Shown: piece by piece, positions 1,090 to 34,733 of the stretch
Layout of the letters: each line of letters opens with the position of its first letter
How positions within the stretch are numbered: the first letter of the stretch is position 1
Virus record (IMG/VR): IMGVR_UViG_3300029928_000026
Reading direction: 5' to 3' (one strand)
Origin: a virus
Length of the DNA stretch: 34,877 nt
Position numbers and translations under genes: made by a program
Notes under the pieces: generated by a model
Database searches by the model: none
What the model saw: the letters and a program-made list of their open reading frames with translations, nothing else
What the model was told of the DNA's origin: nothing

Positions 1090-1108
1090 GAGGTCCCGAA
1101 GGGACCTC
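1090..1108 (-). terminator. Perfect 8-bp hairpin GAGGTCCC-N3-GGGACCTC overlapping the stop of the Gp88-like gene
   Basis: Inverted repeat seen directly; terminator function is inferred. Confidence 0.45.
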
Positions 1109-1754: not shown

Positions 1755-1843
1755 ATCTCTACCTTCTTTGTTGTTCGAAGAGGTTTGGAAGAGTTTGGTG
1801 GGGGATCGGTGTTCCCTCCTCGCACCCGATCCCGCGATTCCTG

Positions 1844-2254
1844 TCAGACCTGCACCTTTGCGATCTTCGTGTGGCCCTTCGTGTTCGCAAGGCGAAGGCC
1901 CAGCAGATTGGAGATGCGGCCGTTCCACGACTGTCTCGACAGCCACTTGTCGCCTCTCGCGGACACCGCGCGCACCGACCAGACGTTGGTGCCGTCGTGG
2001 TGGTACGACCGCACCTCCAGCGTGTTCTCGGAAGTCAGGAAGTATTCGACATCCGATATCCCTCCTCCCATCCATGCGACCTTCTCCAGATCGTCCGCGC
2101 TGCCCACCAGCACGGCGGTCATGCGGGGACCTTCCCACGTGCCGATGACCCCGTCCATGACGAGAGGGGTCTTCTCGCACAGGGCTTCGGCGTAGTACAT
2201 CGCCTGCTCGCGGGACAGTCTCTGAGTCTTCTCCTGCATATCTGTTCTGTACAT
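1844..2254 (-). CDS. Hypothetical protein (136 aa; contains SYHHDGTN)
   Basis: C-terminal part of track ORF 1844..2821. ATG 2254 lies 9 nt after AGGAG. Confidence 0.75.
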   Translation of the reverse strand: MYRTDMQEKTQRLSREQAMYYAEALCEKTPLVMDGVIGTWEGPRMTAVLVGSADDLEKVAWMGGGISDVEYFLTSENTLEVRSYHHDGTNVWSVRAVSARGDKWLSRQSWNGRISNLLGLRLANTKGHTKIAKVQV

Positions 2255-2316
2255 TCTGCATATCTCCTTGTTCTGTTCTTGAAATGGTTTCGTAAAGGGT
2301 TTGAAGTGGTGTCCGT

Positions 2317-2661
2317 TCAGACGATCCTCTTCTCGGCGGCGTAGGCGTCGCTGTACCACAGCGTCCTGACGACCAGCTCGTCGAACCGGTTTCTGGCTTC
2401 CGACTCCGTGAAGTCGTACTCTCCGTTCGACCACCATGCGCGAGGGGTGCTGTTGCCGTCGTCGTCGGGAATGATTCCGAGGTTCTTCCCGATGACGTAG
2501 TCGCCGGTGGCTTCGCGGCGACCCATACATATGAGTTCGAAACCGTTTGAGATGCCTATCGCGCATATCTCGACCGAGAAGTTCCAAAGGGATCCCCTCT
2601 CGGCGAGGATGTCGATCATCTTTCCGATCTGCTGCACGTCTGCTCCTGCTCCAGTCAACAT
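2317..2661 (-). CDS. Hypothetical protein (114 aa)
   Basis: Start re-called at ATG 2661, 9 nt after AGGAG; conserved upstream module. Confidence 0.75.
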   Translation of the reverse strand: MLTGAGADVQQIGKMIDILAERGSLWNFSVEICAIGISNGFELICMGRREATGDYVIGKNLGIIPDDDGNSTPRAWWSNGEYDFTESEARNRFDELVVRTLWYSDAYAAEKRIV

Positions 2662-2760
2662 TTTCCATGTCTCCTTGTTCTGTTCTTGAAACGGTTTGTT
2701 CTGTTCGGTTGTTCGGTGGGGAGTCGGTGTTCTCACCTCGCACTCGACCCCGTTCGATGC

Positions 2761-3117
2761 TCACTCCTTCCAGCCTTCCTCCGTCATCCAGTTCTTGATC
2801 CACTGAAGATAGTCGGGACACGGCTCGACGTCGTACAGGACCGCCAAGGTCAGCTTGACTGCATTCGTGAGACTGAATCTTCCATACATCATCGACTCAT
2901 TGTCGATGACATCTTTGAGAATCCCGTTCAGGCGGATGTCCGCCTTGTCCTTCGGAACCATCCACGAATGTCCGTCCAGATAGTCCGACAGGTACAGGTA
3001 CAGGTCCTTGTCCTCCCTGTGAACCCACATCTCCCTGTAGAATCCCGCAGGGCAGCCGATGTAGCCGCTTACCGCTTCCTTCAGTCCGTGGACTTTGAAC
3101 TTGCCTATGTATATCAT
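2761..3117 (-). CDS. Hypothetical protein (118 aa)
   Basis: AGGAGGTG SD; ATGA overlap with the upstream gene stop. Confidence 0.75.
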   Translation of the reverse strand: MIYIGKFKVHGLKEAVSGYIGCPAGFYREMWVHREDKDLYLYLSDYLDGHSWMVPKDKADIRLNGILKDVIDNESMMYGRFSLTNAVKLTLAVLYDVEPCPDYLQWIKNWMTEEGWKE

Positions 3118-3446
3118 TCCTCGCACCTCCTTTCTGCGCAGTCCATGTCGAACCCGCATATTCTGAATGCTATGATGGACGGCTCTCCGTCGAAGGTGAT
3201 GCTCTTCATCGTCCATTGGTACCCAGGGGTTCCGCGGAACCTCCCGCCTGTCCGATTGATACGGATTGCGATCACCCTCTTCGTTGTTCTGAGCCGTATG
3301 AAATCCACATACGGGTCCAGCCCTTCGGCGATGCACTGCGCCTTGTAGCCGTCGATGAACTTCTTGAGCCACCTGCGGGATTTATAGTACTTGCATATCA
3401 GACCCTTGCGAGGGTCAAAGCAATAGACATTGTACTCTTCGCTCAT
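3114..3446 (-). CDS. Hypothetical protein (110 aa)
   Basis: GAGGAGG SD; coupled to neighbours. Confidence 0.7.
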   Translation of the reverse strand: MSEEYNVYCFDPRKGLICKYYKSRRWLKKFIDGYKAQCIAEGLDPYVDFIRLRTTKRVIAIRINRTGGRFRGTPGYQWTMKSITFDGEPSIIAFRICGFDMDCAERRCEE

Positions 3447-3447
3447 C

Positions 3448-3810
3448 TCAATCCTCCTCCTCGAACGAGTATGCCTCGAACAAGTACGGACACTCGTCGT
3501 TCCATGCGACTCTGAAGATCCCGCTGTAATCGACGGCGATCAGTCCGACATCCAGTCCGTCCGCGCAGTGCGGATCCCCGATATCGACGGTCGTCAGCCC
3601 GATGTTCAGTCCGTCGGGGTTCTGCTCGCACAGAACCTGGCACAGGCGTGCCATGCCGTACTCCGCGTCATCCGCGGGGTCGCGGTACCCTCTGGACATC
3701 ATCTCCTTGATCGCGTCCCACAGTGCCTGTCTGTTGAACCAGTGGACGTAGATGCCCACGGTGACGGTGGTCCTGACTCCGGTCGATACGATGATTGCTC
3801 TGTTTCCCAT
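3448..3810 (-). CDS. Hypothetical protein of the MGNRA...IYxHW...YGxARLxQ phage/MGE family (120 aa)
   Basis: N-terminal MGNRAII, GIYVHW and GYRDP..YGMARLCQV pattern recalled from phage/ICE hypotheticals; GAGGT SD. Confidence 0.75.
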   Translation of the reverse strand: MGNRAIIVSTGVRTTVTVGIYVHWFNRQALWDAIKEMMSRGYRDPADDAEYGMARLCQVLCEQNPDGLNIGLTTVDIGDPHCADGLDVGLIAVDYSGIFRVAWNDECPYLFEAYSFEEED

Positions 3811-3916
3811 TTCAATAACCTCTTTTGTTCTGTTCTTTCAAGGCGTTTGTCAGATCGGTTCTTGGCTGTGGGGTCGCTGTTCTCTCATCGTCAGCCGACC
3901 CCGCGCGGTCGCGGAC

Positions 3917-4330
3917 TCACCACCACATTTCGGAGTCGTCCACGTCGATGTCGTAGCCGCCGTCTATCTTCAGGATGTCCATGAATGTTCCGATGGCGTC
4001 CTCGACCTCGTCCGCGACCGCTTCATCGATGTCGTCGTCGGACGTCGTTCTTGCATCGATGTGCAGGTCGATCCACGCGGTGAAGGTGCGCACGGTCTGA
4101 AGGTTCTCGACTCCGTTCCGTCCGAAGTCCTCGACCTCATCGGAATAGGTCACATCCCACGAATCGAAGATGTTGTCCGCTATCTCCGTGCTCTCCTTCC
4201 TGACGGCCTTCTCGAAGTCGTCGGTCTCCGTGTTGGTCCTGAACTCGACCTTCACGTTCACGCTCGTGACTCTCCAGCATTCGCCTGCATCGAGTCTCCA
4301 GGTTCCGTCTTCCCAGCTCTGCTGTGCCAT
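3917..4330 (-). CDS. Highly acidic hypothetical protein (137 aa)
   Basis: C-terminal part of track ORF 3917..5386. ATG 4330 follows GAGGT. 37 D/E versus 11 K/R by my count. Confidence 0.8.
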   Translation of the reverse strand: MAQQSWEDGTWRLDAGECWRVTSVNVKVEFRTNTETDDFEKAVRKESTEIADNIFDSWDVTYSDEVEDFGRNGVENLQTVRTFTAWIDLHIDARTTSDDDIDEAVADEVEDAIGTFMDILKIDGGYDIDVDDSEMWW

Positions 4331-4428
4331 ATCTCTTACCTCTTCTGTTCTGTTCTTGAAACGGTTTCGATAGAAGGTGTTGGCTGGCGGGTCGCTGTTC
4401 TCTCCTCGCACACGACCCAGTTCATGAT

Positions 4429-4758
4429 TCAGTAGTACGACGACTCGTACTCGGGCTTGCCCTTCCAAGGGTATGCGTTCGCAAAACTGCTGATGCTCAC
4501 CGCCTTGTAAGCGGTGTTCACTCTTCTGCGCATCGGCGCGGACCTGATGCGGGACTTGTCTGGAACCACATATCCCGACATGGGGCCTATCGATTCCGAG
4601 CGACGCGACCCTATCTCCTGGATGACGACCGTCTTCGCGGTTCTGTCCAGGACGATGTAGAAGTCCGTGTTCGTCTGCTCGTATCCCCACTGGGACACAA
4701 GGACGTCTCCGACGTCGAATCCGTCGTTCATGCTCACTGCCGCCTTCTTTGCTGCCAT
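4429..4758 (-). CDS. Hypothetical protein of the GDxLxSxWGYEQTNxDFY family (109 aa)
   Basis: WGYEQTN motif and C-terminal W-K-G-K-P...S-Y pattern recalled from phage/plasmid hypotheticals; GAGGT SD 7 nt before ATG 4758. Confidence 0.8.
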   Translation of the reverse strand: MAAKKAAVSMNDGFDVGDVLVSQWGYEQTNTDFYIVLDRTAKTVVIQEIGSRRSESIGPMSGYVVPDKSRIRSAPMRRRVNTAYKAVSISSFANAYPWKGKPEYESSYY

Positions 4759-4784
4759 TTTCATTACCTCTTCTGTTCTGTTGT

Positions 4785-4802
4785 GAGGGGAGTCCTCCCC
4801 TC
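4785..4802. terminator. Hairpin GAGGGGA-N4-TCCCCTC just after the stop of 4810..5538
   Basis: 7-bp perfect stem; same stem family as 22209-22226 and 34693-34710. Confidence 0.5.
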
Positions 4803-4809
4803 GGGGTGT

Positions 4810-5538
4810 TCACCAATCGAAGCTCCCTGAATCCCATGCGGTATCCTCGGGAACCGCCAGCCATATCGTGCGCTCGCCCTCGTCCTCGAACGGGCTGACG
4901 ATGCGCGCTCCTCCGACGTTCTCCGCCTGCTCGATGAACGTCTTGACTTCCTCTTCGCTCCTGTGTCTCGTGTGGGACAGGATGACTGGGGGATCGCTCA
5001 TCGCCACGACCTTCACCGTGTAAGTCTCCATCGGAACGGCTTCGAGCTGGGTGAAGGTGTCGCCTGTGTACCTGACGGTGTACCAGTTGAGCTTCTCGTC
5101 CAATCCTCTCGAAGAGTCGAGATGGTCTACCAGCTCGTGGAACGGGAAGATGGCCGCGCCGTCCTCCGTCTCGACGAATGTCAGGATGTCCTGCGAGTCT
5201 GCGCACTCTATCCCGAGGTACTTGGAGCCTGTGTAGCTCCATCCTGGAAGAATCAGCCCATCGACGAGATCGACATCCTGAATCAGGATGTCGTCGATGC
5301 GCTGGATGACCGCATCGGTCAGCACTTCGGGTCTCAGGACCTTGCTGGGCTCGACGACCCTGCCGTTGAGTTCGAAGTCGGACCATTCGTAGTCCGCGTA
5401 GTCGCGGACTTCCTGCCAGCCCATCCGCGCGACAAGGCGTGTCGCGTAGGCGCGGCGTATCTCGTCTGCATTGTTGCAGACTACGAGGGATTCGCCGGTC
5501 GAGTTGTTGCGGATCATGTACTTCATTGTTGCCTTCAT
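4810..5538 (-). CDS. Hypothetical protein (242 aa, acidic)
   Basis: AGGAG SD, conserved upstream module, typical codon usage. Confidence 0.8.
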   Translation of the reverse strand: MKATMKYMIRNNSTGESLVVCNNADEIRRAYATRLVARMGWQEVRDYADYEWSDFELNGRVVEPSKVLRPEVLTDAVIQRIDDILIQDVDLVDGLILPGWSYTGSKYLGIECADSQDILTFVETEDGAAIFPFHELVDHLDSSRGLDEKLNWYTVRYTGDTFTQLEAVPMETYTVKVVAMSDPPVILSHTRHRSEEEVKTFIEQAENVGGARIVSPFEDEGERTIWLAVPEDTAWDSGSFDW

Positions 5539-5642
5539 TTCTATTTCTCTCCTTGTTCTGTTCTTTTAAGGCGTTTGAATGGCGGTTATCGGCTGGGGGG
5601 TCGGTGTTCCCTCCTCGTCATCCGACCCCGTTCACTGCGTCG

Positions 5643-6131
5643 TCACTCGTTGCGAACGACCTTGTAGTTGCGGTAGCTGGTGGTGTACGCCTTCAGCTCC
5701 TTCATGAAGGACTCGGGCATCCGCTCATCAAGGCGTTCCAGTCCGCGCTTCGTCTTGAGCGTTCCGATGAGCGCCGATAGACGGGCTTTCTCGTTGCGTC
5801 CGATGAGCTCCTCCCCGATGTCGATGGCGAGCTTCCAGTACATCGGATGTTCGTCCAGGAAGCCCTTGAAATCGGTCTTCTCCGCATGAGCGATGACGAG
5901 TTTGAGATCATCCGCGTTCACGGTGGTGATCTCCTTCTTGCCGACCTCTTCGAGATAGGCGACGATGCCGTCTATTTCGGCGGTGGCTTCGTCCTCCTGC
6001 GCCTTGAAACGCTCGGCGTTCTCGTGGGCGATGCTCTTCTCTCTGATACGGGAGTTGAGCATCTCCATAAGCTCGGAGTCCGAGAGCTGGGAGTAGTCGA
6101 TTTCGGGGGTGCTGGTCTTTTTCGTTGCCAT
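5643..6131 (-). CDS. Hypothetical coiled-coil protein (162 aa)
   Basis: Start re-called at ATG 6131 (GAGGT SD); heptad-like charged N-terminal half. Confidence 0.8.
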   Translation of the reverse strand: MATKKTSTPEIDYSQLSDSELMEMLNSRIREKSIAHENAERFKAQEDEATAEIDGIVAYLEEVGKKEITTVNADDLKLVIAHAEKTDFKGFLDEHPMYWKLAIDIGEELIGRNEKARLSALIGTLKTKRGLERLDERMPESFMKELKAYTTSYRNYKVVRNE

Positions 6132-6242
6132 TTTTATTACCTCTCTGTTCTGTTCTTGAAACGGTTTCATCAAAGCGTTTGAACGGCGGTTGTCGGGTGG
6201 CGGATCGCTGTTCTCTCATCGCAGCCGACCCAGTTCCGAAGC

Positions 6243-6413
6243 TCAGCTTCTGTATCTCTGGTCTGCGGTTTCGAGATAGCACCCTTGAGATGCCATCTCG
6301 CGCCTTACATCGTCCTCGATGTCCTCGTGCGAACGCCTGTCGAATCCCGTCTGGCGGTTGTAGATGTCGTTCACGACGTCTTGTATTTCGCACCATGTAA
6401 CACAGCCTGCCAT
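6243..6413 (-). CDS. Small hypothetical protein (56 aa; MAGCVTWCEIQDVVNDIYNRQTG...)
   Basis: Below the track length cutoff. Manually translated; GAGGT SD 7 nt upstream; fills the gap between promoters and the next module. Confidence 0.7.
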   Translation of the reverse strand: MAGCVTWCEIQDVVNDIYNRQTGFDRRSHEDIEDDVRREMASQGCYLETADQRYRS

Positions 6414-6516: not shown

Positions 6517-6583
6517 AAGGGTTAAAAGGTTTCAACTTACACAAGTCATAATTGTATTGTTAAAGGGTTTAGATAAGAAGTTT
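6517..6583 (-). promoter_or_regulatory. Tandem leftward BRE/TATA-like promoters (AAACCCTTTAACAATA; AAACCTTTTAACC)
   Basis: AT-rich boxes at 6555-6570 and 6517-6532, upstream of the leftward array. Confidence 0.5.
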
Positions 6584-6785: not shown

Positions 6786-7111
6786 TTCAATTACCTCTTT
6801 TAGTGTGAGCTAAGAAGTTTGTTGAATGTTCATTTTTTTTAGAATGGGTTAAAAAGTTTGTTGGATGTGACACATCCGCAGGTTATAGGATATAACTATG
6901 TCTACTCGATATCGAGTAGACATAAAGCCTTGTCGGGTTGTCAATCCGACTCTTTTCGCACTTGCGACGTGTCCGAGGCTTTTAGACACGTGCGCGTTCC
7001 GCGTGTATATGCGCGTGGCGTGTACGTCACGCGTCTTTTACGACGCATGGCGCGCATACCGTGCATCACGCGTTTTTTAGACGCATGACGCACGCCACGC
7101 ATGACGCGGAT

Positions 7112-7196
7112 AAATCGCGTCGTCATTCGACGGCGCGATTTAGCCTAAGAAGGCTCGCGTTACTGAGTCAGTAATAGACGTATCTGACTTGACTCA
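7112..7196. repeat. Cluster of inverted repeats in the strand-switch region
   Basis: 13-bp stem at 7112-7141 (one G-T pair, 4-nt loop); AGCCT/AGGCT at 7142-7155; TGAGTCA/TGACTCA at 7164-7196. Confidence 0.7.
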
Positions 7197-7375
7197 ACGG
7201 GGCGGACATAGCTCTCATATGTATATAAATGTAATTATTTGGTTTACATTAGCCTATATAACATACAAAACGTAACATATGGATGTTATGCCATGCTATT
7301 GTATAGCACGCCTACGTGTCGCTATACGGGTCAGGGGGGATCTGGGTATGCGGGGTTGTAAAAATCCCTCGCGTC

Positions 7376-7467
7376 GAAAAATCAACCCTATATAGCTCGA
7401 AAAATCAGCCCTATACAGCTCGAACCACCGGTCCTATACAGCTTCGCGGTCCCGCCCGATATAGCTC
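7376..7467 (+). repeat. Four imperfect 23-bp tandem repeats with core CCCTATA(T/C)AGCTC
   Basis: Units start at 7376, 7399, 7422 and 7445; further CCCTATAT-like cores at 7472, 7493 and 7517. Confidence 0.8.
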
Positions 7468-7524
7468 CGCACCCTATATCGCGCAGCCGAATCCCATATA
7501 TAGGCGGAAGGACTGTCCCTATAT

Positions 7525-7794
7525 ATGGAAGACAATGGATCCGTCGCATCCGGGCCCGCGGCAGACGACCGCAGGGTCTACTGGTGTCCGACATGCAGGG
7601 CATGGTACCTGGTCAGAGGCGATTCGCGTCCGGTGTGTCCCACGTGCATGGCGCCGGCGAGCACCTATACATGCACGAGATGCGGGAAGACCTGGACGCC
7701 CCGCCGCGTCGATCCCCCGAAGCACTGCTCCAGATGCAACAGTCCGTACTGGAACCGCATGAGGACGGCCGCCCACTCCAAGAGGAGGGCCTGA
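7525..7794 (+). CDS. Double zinc-ribbon protein (89 aa)
   Basis: Four CxxC pairs. C-terminal CxRCGxxWxPR...PxxCxxCxSPYW motif recalled from archaeal and archaeal-virus Zn-ribbon proteins. TATA-like CATATATA about 25 nt upstream suggests a leaderless mRNA. Confidence 0.8.
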   Translation: MEDNGSVASGPAADDRRVYWCPTCRAWYLVRGDSRPVCPTCMAPASTYTCTRCGKTWTPRRVDPPKHCSRCNSPYWNRMRTAAHSKRRA

Positions 7795-8867: not shown

Positions 8868-11800
8868 ATGCGAGAGCATATGGCCGACGATGACGAGCTC
8901 GGAGATGAGCAGACTAAAGTCAAGGTTCCCGGACCGGATATACCGCACCTCAACAATTCTAATGATCATAAGACAGGCGACGGTGTCGAGAACGTCGCTC
9001 CTGCGAATCAGACCGGCGAGACCGGCAAACAAACCGATTCTGCAGAGCAGGCCGTCGCTCCTGTGGATCAGACCGGCGAGACCGTCGAAGAAGAGCAGGA
9101 GGACGGCGCTGGGGCCGATGCGGAGGTGAATCCTGTCGAGACGGAGGTCCAGGCGAAGGCCCATGTCGAGGAGCCCCCTGAAGTCGAGGGGCCCCCTGCT
9201 GAGTACACATCGACCGAAGAAGCGAAGGACAGATCCGAAGAGGAGGAGCAGGACTCCGAGGAGAGGCGGCAGGACGAGGAGACCTACGGATCGCAGGACG
9301 ACTCGCGGTTCGACGAGGATGCCGGGAGATACTACGACGAGGCGAGGCGCCGCAACAGGTGGATGACGACGGAGAACGCCCTGAAGACCGCCGCGGTCAT
9401 GCTCCCCGGAGTCGCCGCGCAGGGTCTCGGAGAAGGCATCGGAGCGGTCACCAGACTGGTGGACGGCTTCCTCTCGGGAGGGGCGCTGAGCATGCCGTCC
9501 AGGGTGCTGGCGGAGGCCATGACCGGCGCGGATACCGCGAAGCGTCTCGGAGAGGCGTCCGCGCAGGCGTACGGCATCGCGGCGAACGCCGACAGGGAGG
9601 CTCTGAAGGGCACGTATCAGGGGCGCATGCTCGAAGCCCGCGACAAGGCGGAGATGATGGGCATCGCAAGGGCGCATGCGGTCATCGCGCAGGCGGGCGG
9701 GGAGGACCTCTCGCAGCTGGACGACGCAGGGCTCGACGGCGTGGAGAGGAGGCTCGGCGCGAGGCGTGCGGAGCTGATGCGCAGGCTGAGCGAGGACCAC
9801 GCGGCCAGAGAACGCAACAGACAGCAGTACAGGGACGGCGACGCCGTGATGCAGTTCGCAGGGCTCGTGGGCGGAGCGGACGGAACCATGAAGGCGTCGG
9901 AGCGCAGGGAGGCTCTCGCGGAGATCGCATCAATCGACGACGTGACCAAGGGCATCGGGACCGCCAGACGCAGCCTGAGGTCTCAGGAGAGGGAGCAGGC
10001 GCGTCAGCAGAAGGCCGCGCAGGCGCAGGCGTACGAGGACTACTATCAGAACAGCGCCCAGCCGTCCCAGCGCCTCGTCATGGACATGCTCGGACGCAAG
10101 GACATCGAGTGGGGGGCGGACGGGCTGCCCGTGGACCGCAACGTGCTCGGCAGGGCCGCCCGCGCCCTGCTGAACAGATACAGGAGCGAGACGAACCCCG
10201 ATCCCGCTCTTGCGCGCGCGGCCGCGATATACGGAGCGGCGTACAGGTCCAGAGGCGAGTCGTCCGAAGCGGAGCGCAGGAGGCTCCTGAGAGAGCAGAA
10301 GGAGGCGGACAAGGCTGCGAAGCAGAAGGCGTATGACGATTATTACGGCAATAAGGCGACGCCCGAGCAGAGATACGTCATGCGGCACATCCTCGGACGC
10401 AACGATGTGGATTGGGGAGACAACGGATTCCCTGTGGATAGGAACGTCATATACCGCATCGCACGCGGACTGGACGACTACGCGACGGCGAATCCCAACA
10501 ACGCGGATGCCGGGTATGCGAAGCAGATGGCCGGGAAGTATTGGACCGAATGGTACAATCATGCTCCCGATGAGACCAAGGCGCGCCGTGCCGAGGCCGA
10601 GCAGAGGAGGCAGGCGCGTCAGCAGAAGGAGGCGGACAAGGCTGCGAAGCAGAAGGCGTACGAGGACTACTACGCCAACCGGGCGGACGACGGCCAGAAG
10701 ACGGTCATGGATCTGCTCGGACGCAGAGACATCGACTGGGACGAGCGCGGGTTCCCTGTGAAGGACTCGGACCTGAACAGGGCGTACAGGAGGCTGAACC
10801 ACGACATACTGAACGAGCCCGACCCGCAGGCGAGAGCATCCCTGGAGAAGCTGAGGGACGCCTACTGGGCCGAGAAGCAGGCCCGTGCGATCACTCCCGA
10901 GAAGAGGGCGAAGCTGGAGGAGGAGAGGAAGCGGAGCGAGGCGTACAGGCAGTTCTATCAGAGTCTCGCGGACGACGATCCGAGGAAGGTGCTGATGGAC
11001 GCCTTGGGCGATATCGAGATCGACTGGGGCGCGGACGGCCTCCCCATGGACAGCAGTAAGCTGCGGAAAGCCGCGCTGGCCCTGACGGAGAGGGCGAACA
11101 GGACGAGCGACCCAGTCGAGGCGAACAGGCTGAACGGCTACGCGAAGAGGTTCACGGAGCAGTTCGCGCATCTCAAGGAGACTCCGGACGACAGGCTGAG
11201 GAGGGAGCAGACCGAGCAGGCCGAGCGCGACTACGCGAACGCGTACGGCGCAGCGGACGACTACCAGAAAGCATGGTTCGACAGGGTCAACGCCGGCAGG
11301 AGGACGAAGGCCGCGCCGCAGTTCGACGCCGAGGGCCTTCCCGCGGATCCCAGGATGCTGAACAGGTATGCGGTGTTCGCCAAGGAGCAGGCGGATGCGG
11401 CGACGGATGATGCCGTCAGAAGGGAGTGGAACGCCCGCGAGGAGAAGGCGAAGGCGAGGATAGGCACCGAGAAGATCCGGAGCAGATTGAATCCTGAAAA
11501 CAGGAGGCTGTTCGACACGGATGCCACGCAGAGGATGTACATGAGCATTCCGGGCGTGGGGGACGACAGGCTTGAGAACACCGAGCCGGGAGCCCTCCCT
11601 CTCGACAGCAGGAACTGGGGCAAATGGATCGGTCACCTCAGGAACAGGGGCGATATCGAGGGCGCGACGCTGGCGGAGCTCAACCGCGCGTGCAGGAACG
11701 CAGACCTTGCGGGCAAGTGGCCCGAGGTCAGCAGGAACGTGCGCAACCTCATGAGCAGGCTGGATGATGACGAGAAGGGCTTCATGGCCTCCCCTACGTT

Positions 11801-14335: not shown

Positions 14336-14356
14336 ATCCCGGGACATCCCCGGGAT
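14336..14356 (+). terminator. Hairpin ATCCCGGG-N5-CCCGGGAT after the giant gene
   Basis: Perfect 8-bp stem 5 nt after TGA. Confidence 0.5.
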
Positions 14357-22208: not shown

Positions 22209-22226
22209 GAGGGGCTCAGGCCCCTC
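22209..22226 (+). terminator. Hairpin GAGGGGC-TCAG-GCCCCTC
   Basis: 7-bp stem, 4 nt after TGA. Confidence 0.5.
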
Positions 22227-34692: not shown

Positions 34693-34733
34693 GAGGGGAT
34701 GGCTCCCCTCATTCGGAGGGGCTCCGCCCCTCC
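34693..34733. terminator. Double hairpin between convergent genes (probable bidirectional terminator)
   Basis: GAGGGGA-TGGC-TCCCCTC (34693-34710) and GGAGGGGC-TCC-GCCCCTCC (34715-34733). Confidence 0.55.

Follow-up and report, generated by a model that had tools for sequence, protein, structure and literature searches.

A hairpin-bearing module repeated between early genes of a Methanomassiliicoccales virus: a possible archaeal counterpart of promoter-early stem-loop cassettes

Why one hairpin should recur behind a series of unrelated early genes is the question raised by IMG/VR record IMGVR_UViG_3300029928_000026. The record is a stretch of 34,877 nucleotides (nt; the window, to which all positions refer unless another contig is named) from a head-tailed virus of Methanomassiliicoccales, and its closest named relative is vir335. 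The 34.9-kb window holds exactly six copies of the hairpin, and all of them lie on the minus (sense) strand. An initial annotation, made from the letters alone, had taken the hairpin for a stand-alone cis-regulatory motif, but it is one part, the 5' core, of a larger intergenic module of ~90-110 nt that is repeated along with it. On balance, and with moderate confidence, we favor the explanation that the module is an archaeal counterpart of the promoter-early stem-loop (PeSL) cassettes of the T4-type phages RB49/phi1, PST, and nt-1 (PMC2839356, PMC4122927), that is, a stem-loop at RNA 3' boundaries whose repetition drives the shuffling of cassettes.

The hairpin has a constant anatomy and a constant place. 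The stem is 10 bp long, with a lower part of 7-8 bp (of the GGGGUCGG/CCGACCCC type) followed by 2-3 pairs next to the loop, and one unpaired purine sits on the 5' arm between the lower stem and the loop-closing pairs. The loop of 11-12 nt reads (A)CGAKGWGRGAA, as had been described, and positions C1, G2, A3, G5, G7, G9, A10, and A11 are invariant in 10 of 10 distinct copies from both the window and vir335 lineages. All six hairpins were found where the initial annotation had placed them, copies 4 and 6 each gaining one U-G closing pair. Copy 1 (1802-1833; 57.1 bits in the covariance search given below) lies 10 nt past the UGA of the open reading frame (ORF) at 1844-2254 and 47 nt ahead of the ATG of a GP88-family gene (1107-1754). 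Copy 2 (2718-2751; 57.5 bits) follows a UGA by 9 nt and precedes the next ATG by 56 nt, and it differs in an additional U bulge in the 3' arm and in a 5' bulge that is one position over. Copy 3 (3870-3902; 57.7 bits; 12-nt loop) lies 14 nt past the ORF at 3917-4330, copy 4 (4388-4419; 60.5 bits) has two U-G pairs, and copy 5 (5597-5629; 64 bits; 12-nt loop) is, of the six, nearest to the sole copy of vir335. Finally, copy 6 (6201-6232; 57.8 bits), with one U-G and one G-U pair, lies 10 nt past the UGA of a 56-amino-acid (aa) ORF at 6243-6413. Over the six copies, the distances from UGA to hairpin are 9, 9, 10, 10, 13, and 14 nt, and in every copy 47-69 nt separate the end of the hairpin from the next ATG. 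The gaps after the UGA place the hairpin in each of the three frames, and thus no one reading frame is conserved through it; read-through of the stop codon, recoding, and a SECIS-like element were rejected on the same ground. We note that UGA is the stop of 6/6 ORFs that precede these hairpins (1844-6413, minus strand) and also of the ORF before the vir335 copy. The 3' flanks read CC(A/G)(C/G)CC..., and no run of four or more T occurs within 40 nt downstream of any of the six copies. No tRNA was found in the window.

That the element is a real structure with a covarying stem, as had been claimed, is supported by several comparisons. The initial annotation had suggested a covariance model, and such a model (R1), trained on the six window copies and two from relatives and run on the window with filters off, found only the six, at 57-64 bits and E about 1e-14, with the next best match at 14 bits. 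In 8 sequences, 96% of cells were paired, both sides had changed in 5 of the 10 pairs, and none of 500 column shuffles was as good; in slid registers only 36-51% of cells were paired. With 10 distinct sequences (the six window copies and four distinct copies of related viruses), again 96% of cells were paired and 5 of the 10 pairs were doubly changed, 11 cells were double changes, and 0 of 500 shuffles did as well. Moreover, RNAalifold independently predicted the same helix. Compensatory change in the stem is therefore found, as in the A-U pair carried by copy 1, but one of the supposed examples has another cause: the G-C to C-G change seen within the window arises because the bulge occupies column 13 in some copies and column 14 in others, and the true flips are those that separate the window from the vir335 lineage, at pair 12/32 (G-C to C-G) and pair 15/30 (U-A to C-G). 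Folding of single sequences gave weak z-scores of -0.5 to -3.1, unremarkable for GC-rich 40-mers. Thus, chance is ruled out by repetition and covariation and not by folding stability. Rfam 15, a further check that had been proposed, holds no family that matches the hairpins at gathering or relaxed thresholds; it returned two chance matches only (E>1), both on the plus (antisense) strand, one of which (3855-3898) shares positions with copy 3.

The strand on which the hairpin is read can be told from its substitutions. G-U pairs are present on the minus strand, as annotated, but in six cells and not two, and they are joined by a single A-C cell, which lies in a recombinant copy on contig L048. 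Moreover, the orientation of every copy is the direction of the genes. A bias of 6 to 1 toward wobble on the sense strand, together with an orientation that always follows the genes, indicates that the element is read as sense-strand RNA and less likely as that single strand of DNA, in agreement with the transcribed-strand reading of the initial annotation. The single bulge of the 5' arm was likewise found in all six window copies but is lost in the recombinant L048 copy.

Around the hairpin, the parts of the module keep a fixed order: stop codon, hairpin, C-rich flank (CCASCC) or spacer, AAACSNYTTNA box, AAGAACAGAACA, Shine-Dalgarno (SD) sequence, and ATG. The AAACSNYTTNA box has 13 matches versus 0.25 expected, almost all of them in these intergenic regions, and the 12-mer AAGAACAGAACA has 6 exact copies versus 0.09 expected. 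The box lies ~32-38 nt upstream of each ATG, and its match to TATA is weak. In module 6, the rest of the unit (6132-6200, minus strand) comprises a CC-rich flank, two AAACSNYTTNA boxes (6170-6180 and 6157-6167), AAGAACAGAACA (6146-6157), and an SD sequence, and whole-module alignment places the matching parts of the other modules, on the same strand, at 1755-1801, 2662-2717, 3811-3869, 4331-4387, and 5539-5596. The promoter-like half is able to stand alone, as at 2255-2316 on the minus strand, where box, AAGAACAGAACA, SD sequence, and ATG form a module that lacks the hairpin. Within the promoter-like box of several modules, GAAAC-C-GTTTC (6157-6169) forms a perfect palindrome, which matches both strands and so may be an operator instead of, or besides, a promoter element. 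The pentamer GAACA is also concentrated in these regions: between positions 1 and 6800, the sense strand has 27 in 1034 intergenic nt versus 13 in 5766 coding nt (~11-fold), and the antisense strand of the intergenic regions has none. The GAACA sites lie at the junction of loop and 3' arm, often in the 5' flank of the hairpin, in spacers, and in the AAGAACAGAACA box, and GAACA could serve, on one strand only, as a leader or protein-binding motif. In strain L047, five intergenic modules (436 nt) are all identical, while coding sequence differs by ~1.4%.

What the hairpin might do as RNA is suggested by what stands in its place elsewhere. Within the same operon, a hairpin unrelated to the six copies (family A), GAGGGGA-ggac-TCCCCTC (family B; 4785-4802, minus strand), also follows a stop, and its homologues in relative L038 show a compensatory A-U to C-G change. 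Another unrelated hairpin, with a UUCG loop (1090-1108, minus strand), begins within the UGA stop of the GP88 gene, and GC-rich hairpins stand behind the stops of late genes on the plus strand (14336-14356, 22209-22226, 34693-34710, and 34715-34733). No family-A copy was found in the distant relatives L038, L041, and L042 (GP88 about 46% identical) or in L050 and L051; L038, L041, and L042 have their own repeated GC-rich hairpins directly after the stops of early genes. The unrelated substitutes have loops of 3-5 nt. Since other hairpins occupy the same place, a hairpin directly behind the stop is generally the rule among these viruses, with family A as one sequence family that fills it, and the substitution speaks for a role set by structure and position. 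We note that the late and structural genes end in TGA-AACC followed by hairpins of the GAGGGG...CCCCTC type, which are related to hairpin B, and that two such hairpins stand in tandem behind a 1002-aa gene (34693-34733, plus strand).

Comparison between virus lineages shows that genes have recombined at the module. Contig L048, which has a vir335-like backbone, carries the window ORFs 3917-4330 and 4810-5538 at 97% aa identity but in reversed order. The module between them resembles copy 3 from the upstream flank through CAGCGACCCC and copy 5 from CCAGCCGATAACC to the ATG, which places the crossover inside the 3' arm of the hairpin. The copy 5 spacer accompanies the ORF downstream of it (window 4810-5538). 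Thus, the halves of the module differ in origin: the 5' flank moves with the upstream gene, spacer, box, and SD sequence move with the downstream gene, and exchange takes place at the hairpin. A second type of junction is found in L004 and L048 at the upstream end of the same insert, where vir335-like coding sequence is joined to the 3' arm of copy 4 at GCGA(T/C)CCGCC, a microhomology of 9 of 10 positions. Contig L049 has a complete copy 4, and its junction with the backbone lies elsewhere, outside the hairpin. To judge from the junctions, the crossovers look like ordinary homology or microhomology exchange. Recombination at the 3' arm of copy 4 has also made an open frame in L048 (positions 10954-11490 of that contig), called as one 178-aa gene, in which ~20 codons of a vir335-like gene run through the former spacer into a full ORF homologous to window 3917-4330. 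Cassettes differ at the strain level as well: among near-identical strains, a low-GC gene cassette is present, absent, or replaced (window 6532-6552; about 5170-5345 in L028, L029, and L032), and this difference is located between two AAACC-N-TTTAAC boxes.

We propose that these properties combine in three steps. First, every copy points the way that transcription runs, and compensatory and wobble changes on the sense strand preserve the stem, so that the element acts as a folded RNA. Second, folding just beyond the terminating ribosome, 9-14 nt past the UGA, the hairpin would mark the 3' boundary of the upstream cistron, whether as a barrier to 3'-to-5' decay, as a processing site, or as an attenuator or insulator before the next promoter-like box; the other GC-rich hairpins behind other genes of the virus would work alike. 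We infer this RNA function from where the hairpin lies, from its strand bias, and from the other hairpins that substitute for it functionally, and processing or stabilization is its most plausible form. Third, the same ~32 nt, being directly repeated, serves as a crossover point, and comparison of the lineages shows cassettes reordered and exchanged at the hairpin.

Several points weigh against this explanation. Without a U-tract after the hairpins, a terminator role would be noncanonical, and the terminators mapped in archaea are U-tracts that do not require a hairpin (PMC8716108, PMC13675443). The promoter-like role of the AAACSNYTTNA box is putative, and the box matches the classical TATA box poorly. 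A purely structural role leaves unexplained why the loop frame and the bulged purine are kept in both lineages; the signal of loop conservation is statistically weak, in that the vir335 copy and its nearest counterpart differ at 1/12 loop and 4/20 stem positions. Only two independent junctions lie inside a hairpin, with that of L049 outside, and the crossovers could be a passive result of repetition and not a selected function. Finally, vir335 has a single hairpin copy in 83 kb.

The constancy of the loop could instead mean that a protein reads it. In such a sequence-specific RNA operator, which we consider possible but unlikely, a viral or host protein would recognize the bulged purine and the purine loop, and once bound it would govern whether the early polycistronic RNA is translated, read through, or cleaved. 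Within the loop, G2-A10 and A3-G9 may form tandem sheared G-A pairs that close a KGWGR pentaloop. Consistent with an operator, eight loop positions are invariant in ten copies on a stem that shows three kinds of compensatory change, the unpaired nucleotide of the 5' arm is always a purine, the intergenically enriched GAACA stands at the junction of loop and 3' arm, and an RNA target agrees with the wobble bias of the sense strand. The substitute hairpins with their short loops, however, occupy the same place both in the same operon and in relatives free of the motif, and the L048 copy does without the bulge. Moreover, loop conservation relative to the nearest paralogue is not significantly above that of the stem or module, and the shared sequence could come from ongoing exchange between lineages. 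Searches of Pfam and PHROG gave no candidate RNA-binding protein among the neighboring ORFans. The 56-aa ORF at 6243-6413 was considered as a hairpin-binding protein by co-occurrence, which with three lineages was uninformative.

The hairpin does not fit the K-loop rule, which also weighs against the operator. K-turns and K-loops, the sites of L7Ae, have on the 5' strand a 3-nt bulge and then G-A, and on the 3' strand a G-A that abuts a canonical stem. Here, the 5' GA comes after (A)C, no more than 1-2 nt, an extra A lies between the 3' GA and the stem, and the pairs that would need to open (15-30 and 16-29) are backed by covariation. A loop that mimics an SD sequence was rejected, as copy 3, copy 6, and the copy of vir335 have GAUGAG, which lacks an SD core, and a kissing or pseudoknot partner was rejected because no 8-mer complement of the loop recurs on the early sense strand. 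Resemblances of the loop to the sarcin-ricin loop and of the stem with its CCA flank to a tRNA minihelix found no match in Rfam and were dropped. The narrower idea that the bulged stem and the C-GA...GA-A loop, with tandem sheared G-A pairs and a purine pentaloop, form a specific recognition platform for a dedicated viral or host protein is less likely still. If true, the platform would be a new class of cis-regulatory RNA in archaeal viruses, punctuating early polycistronic transcripts by cleavage, protection, or control of read-through, and recombination would be a by-product.

Might the hairpin alone stop or attenuate the host RNA polymerase, each cassette then being a pair of terminator and promoter? 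Its place directly past stop codons and ahead of a promoter-like box suits this, hairpins stand at the ends of late operons as well, and the stem-loops of PeSL cassettes terminate in Escherichia coli (PMC2839356). We nevertheless regard it as improbable. In archaeal U-tract terminators, four to seven U stand in a row at the 3' end or immediately ahead of it (PMC8716108), and with no run of four or more T within 40 nt after any copy neither an intrinsic nor an aCPSF1-assisted terminator of this kind fits; the archaeal signals mapped so far have, as said, no need of a hairpin. A bacterial intrinsic terminator was rejected because the 3' flanks are of the CC(A/G)(C/G)CC... type and not a U-run. 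In addition, the downstream genes keep a strong SD sequence, typical of internal cistrons. The initial statement that the hairpin is not a canonical terminator thus stands.

A site that works as DNA is more improbable again. It could be a palindromic operator, a cruciform, or an attC-like folded single strand for a recombinase; a dimeric regulator could bind the inverted repeat, junctions of recombination lie in the 3' arm, and the extrahelical base recalls attC sites. The half-sites, however, covary within single copies and show G-T wobble on one strand only, a pattern that a reader of double-stranded half-sites would not yield, and every copy is oriented with transcription. Integron attC sites are recognized by R'' and R' core sites (RYYYAAC and GTTRRRY), extrahelical bases, and a linked integron integrase. 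The arms GGGGTCGG/CCGACCCC lack GTTRRRY and the junctions are based on homology, so attC was rejected, although no search for an integrase was made. Junctions of ordinary homology, or of 9-of-10 microhomology with coding sequence, have no fixed cut site, and the site-specific folded single-stranded recombination site of the initial annotation gives way to exchange of that ordinary kind.

Least probable of all is that the hairpin has spread between the genes as a small palindrome of the REP or MITE kind, selfish or neutral and without function for the virus: there are six copies in one lineage versus one in vir335, and they are imperfect palindromes past stop codons, as REP elements are, but ten strain contigs show no polymorphism of presence and absence, compensatory change keeps the stem paired, the modules stay identical in the strain with ~1.4% coding difference, and the motif pattern, scanned over one genome per species from 185,579 species, had no archaeal match and only chance matches in bacteria.

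The genes that the modules separate belong to a leftward early operon, whose minus-strand genes run from ~6785 down to 1, starting from an AT-rich divergent control region, and the cassettes part this operon into units of one to three ORFan genes. Ten flanking proteins had no Pfam match at E <= 0.01, and none of them matched a PHROG family with an annotated function, two matching PHROGs of unknown function, and no paralogy was found among the flanking genes. As the flanking proteins are non-paralogous ORFans, the module must have spread independently of the genes. The 56-aa ORFan at 6243-6413 (minus strand) is 94% identical to its homologues in the vir335 lineage, compared with 30-69% for neighboring early proteins, and it is absent from the L038 lineage, which itself lacks family-A hairpins. 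The control region (6850-7530) contains long perfect palindromes at 6897-6924 (12-bp stem), 7494-7528 (11-bp stem), and 7111-7142, as well as repeated TATAGG/TATATAGG words. We speculate that, on such features, the region may be an origin or the main switch between early and late genes.

Among the proteins encoded in the window are a VapE-like primase-helicase, an SNF2 helicase, and the GP88-family protein, and contigs with an identical GP88 protein reach up to 82 kb. The closest deposited record is Caudoviricetes sp. vir335 (called Classicovirus victor in one source), an 83-kb circle from baboon feces with Methanomassiliicoccales as the annotated host, and it is the sole related entry among GenBank phage records. 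Gene order is strongly scrambled between the window and vir335. The one family-A copy of vir335 lies upstream of the GP88 homologue, as copy 1 does, but behind a different upstream gene. Pattern scans of metagenomes and genomes gave four true relatives (ERZ8082xx contigs), the rest being chance matches in high-GC bacteria without the module, and scans of IMG/VR with two hairpin patterns and the GP88 protein gave no relatives and only two chance coding matches.

Viruses of Methanomassiliicoccales, which are gut methanogens, are known almost solely from metagenomes. The analysis yields an RNA structure backed by covariation that has no Rfam entry, and lineage comparisons that show directly how ORFan cassettes of an archaeal tailed virus are shuffled, through crossover within a repeated module of stem-loop and promoter box. 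Such shuffling has been demonstrated for T4-type phages and, for one haloarchaeal virus, just suggested by resemblance of motifs. The module also provides a test case of whether hairpins without U-tracts can shape the 3' ends of archaeal mRNA, where termination is thought to depend on U-tracts.

How the module compares with known systems depends on which of its parts is considered. The hairpins resemble REP/BIME elements, which likewise span 30-40 nt, form a palindrome made imperfect by a mismatch or bulge, and lie just past stops inside operons; REP/BIME elements are known to stabilize upstream mRNA against 3' exonucleases and to serve as substrates for recombination. REP elements, however, number hundreds per chromosome, have a GTAG-type 5' end, and are mobilized by RAYT transposases, whereas the six viral copies have no such 5' end; with six copies in a virus and only chance pattern matches in bacteria, we do not count them as REP/BIME elements, although no search for a RAYT protein was made. 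In the early region of phage T7, hairpins between genes are processed by RNase III, and the 3' hairpin that remains after cleavage stabilizes the upstream mRNA. Here as in T7, related hairpins of one family stand between the cistrons of an early polycistronic transcript, but the T7 stems are long, double-stranded, and internally looped and are cut by the bacterial enzyme, and cleavage here is a proposal. Early transcripts of lambda likewise carry a small hairpin, boxB, whose loop is rich in purines. The 5-bp stem of boxB, its GNRA-like pentaloop, pairing with boxA, and dependence on N and bacterial Nus factors have no equivalent here, and with an anatomy that differs and a host that is an archaeon, the antitermination suggested initially is not upheld.

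Closer likenesses are found among viruses with repeated early cassettes. In HGTV-1, a haloarchaeal myovirus, a TATA-like motif and an inverted repeat precede most ORFs of the left arm and are PeSL-like according to its authors (Sencilo et al. 2013, as described in PMC3950731). HGTV-1 too is tailed and infects an archaeon, and a repeated motif that combines an inverted repeat with a promoter-like box stands ahead of many of its small ORFs. The likeness lies in this combination of parts; host phylum and sequence differ, and crossovers inside the repeat are directly documented here. PeSL cassettes themselves differ from the module in that their stem-loop lies between or over the -35 and -10 elements, whereas ours is always upstream of the box, and in having a terminator stem of polyG/polyC in place of a bulged stem with a large, conserved purine loop. 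Moreover, the host being an archaeon, any promoter here, which is putative, would be of the BRE/TATA type and not the sigma-70 type of PeSL cassettes. The likeness is one of sequence comparison, with terminator and promoter activities and mini-circles no part of it. In both, the space from the upstream stop to the next ATG is taken up by a composite unit of ~100 nt that comprises stem-loop, promoter-like box, and SD sequence, the unit is repeated among ORFans of a hyperplastic early region, and the flanked genes are reshuffled by crossovers between copies, some of them within the stem-loop. By its composite stop-to-ATG structure with SD sequence, its repetition among ORFans in a plastic early region, and the reshuffling between its copies, the module agrees with PeSL cassettes.

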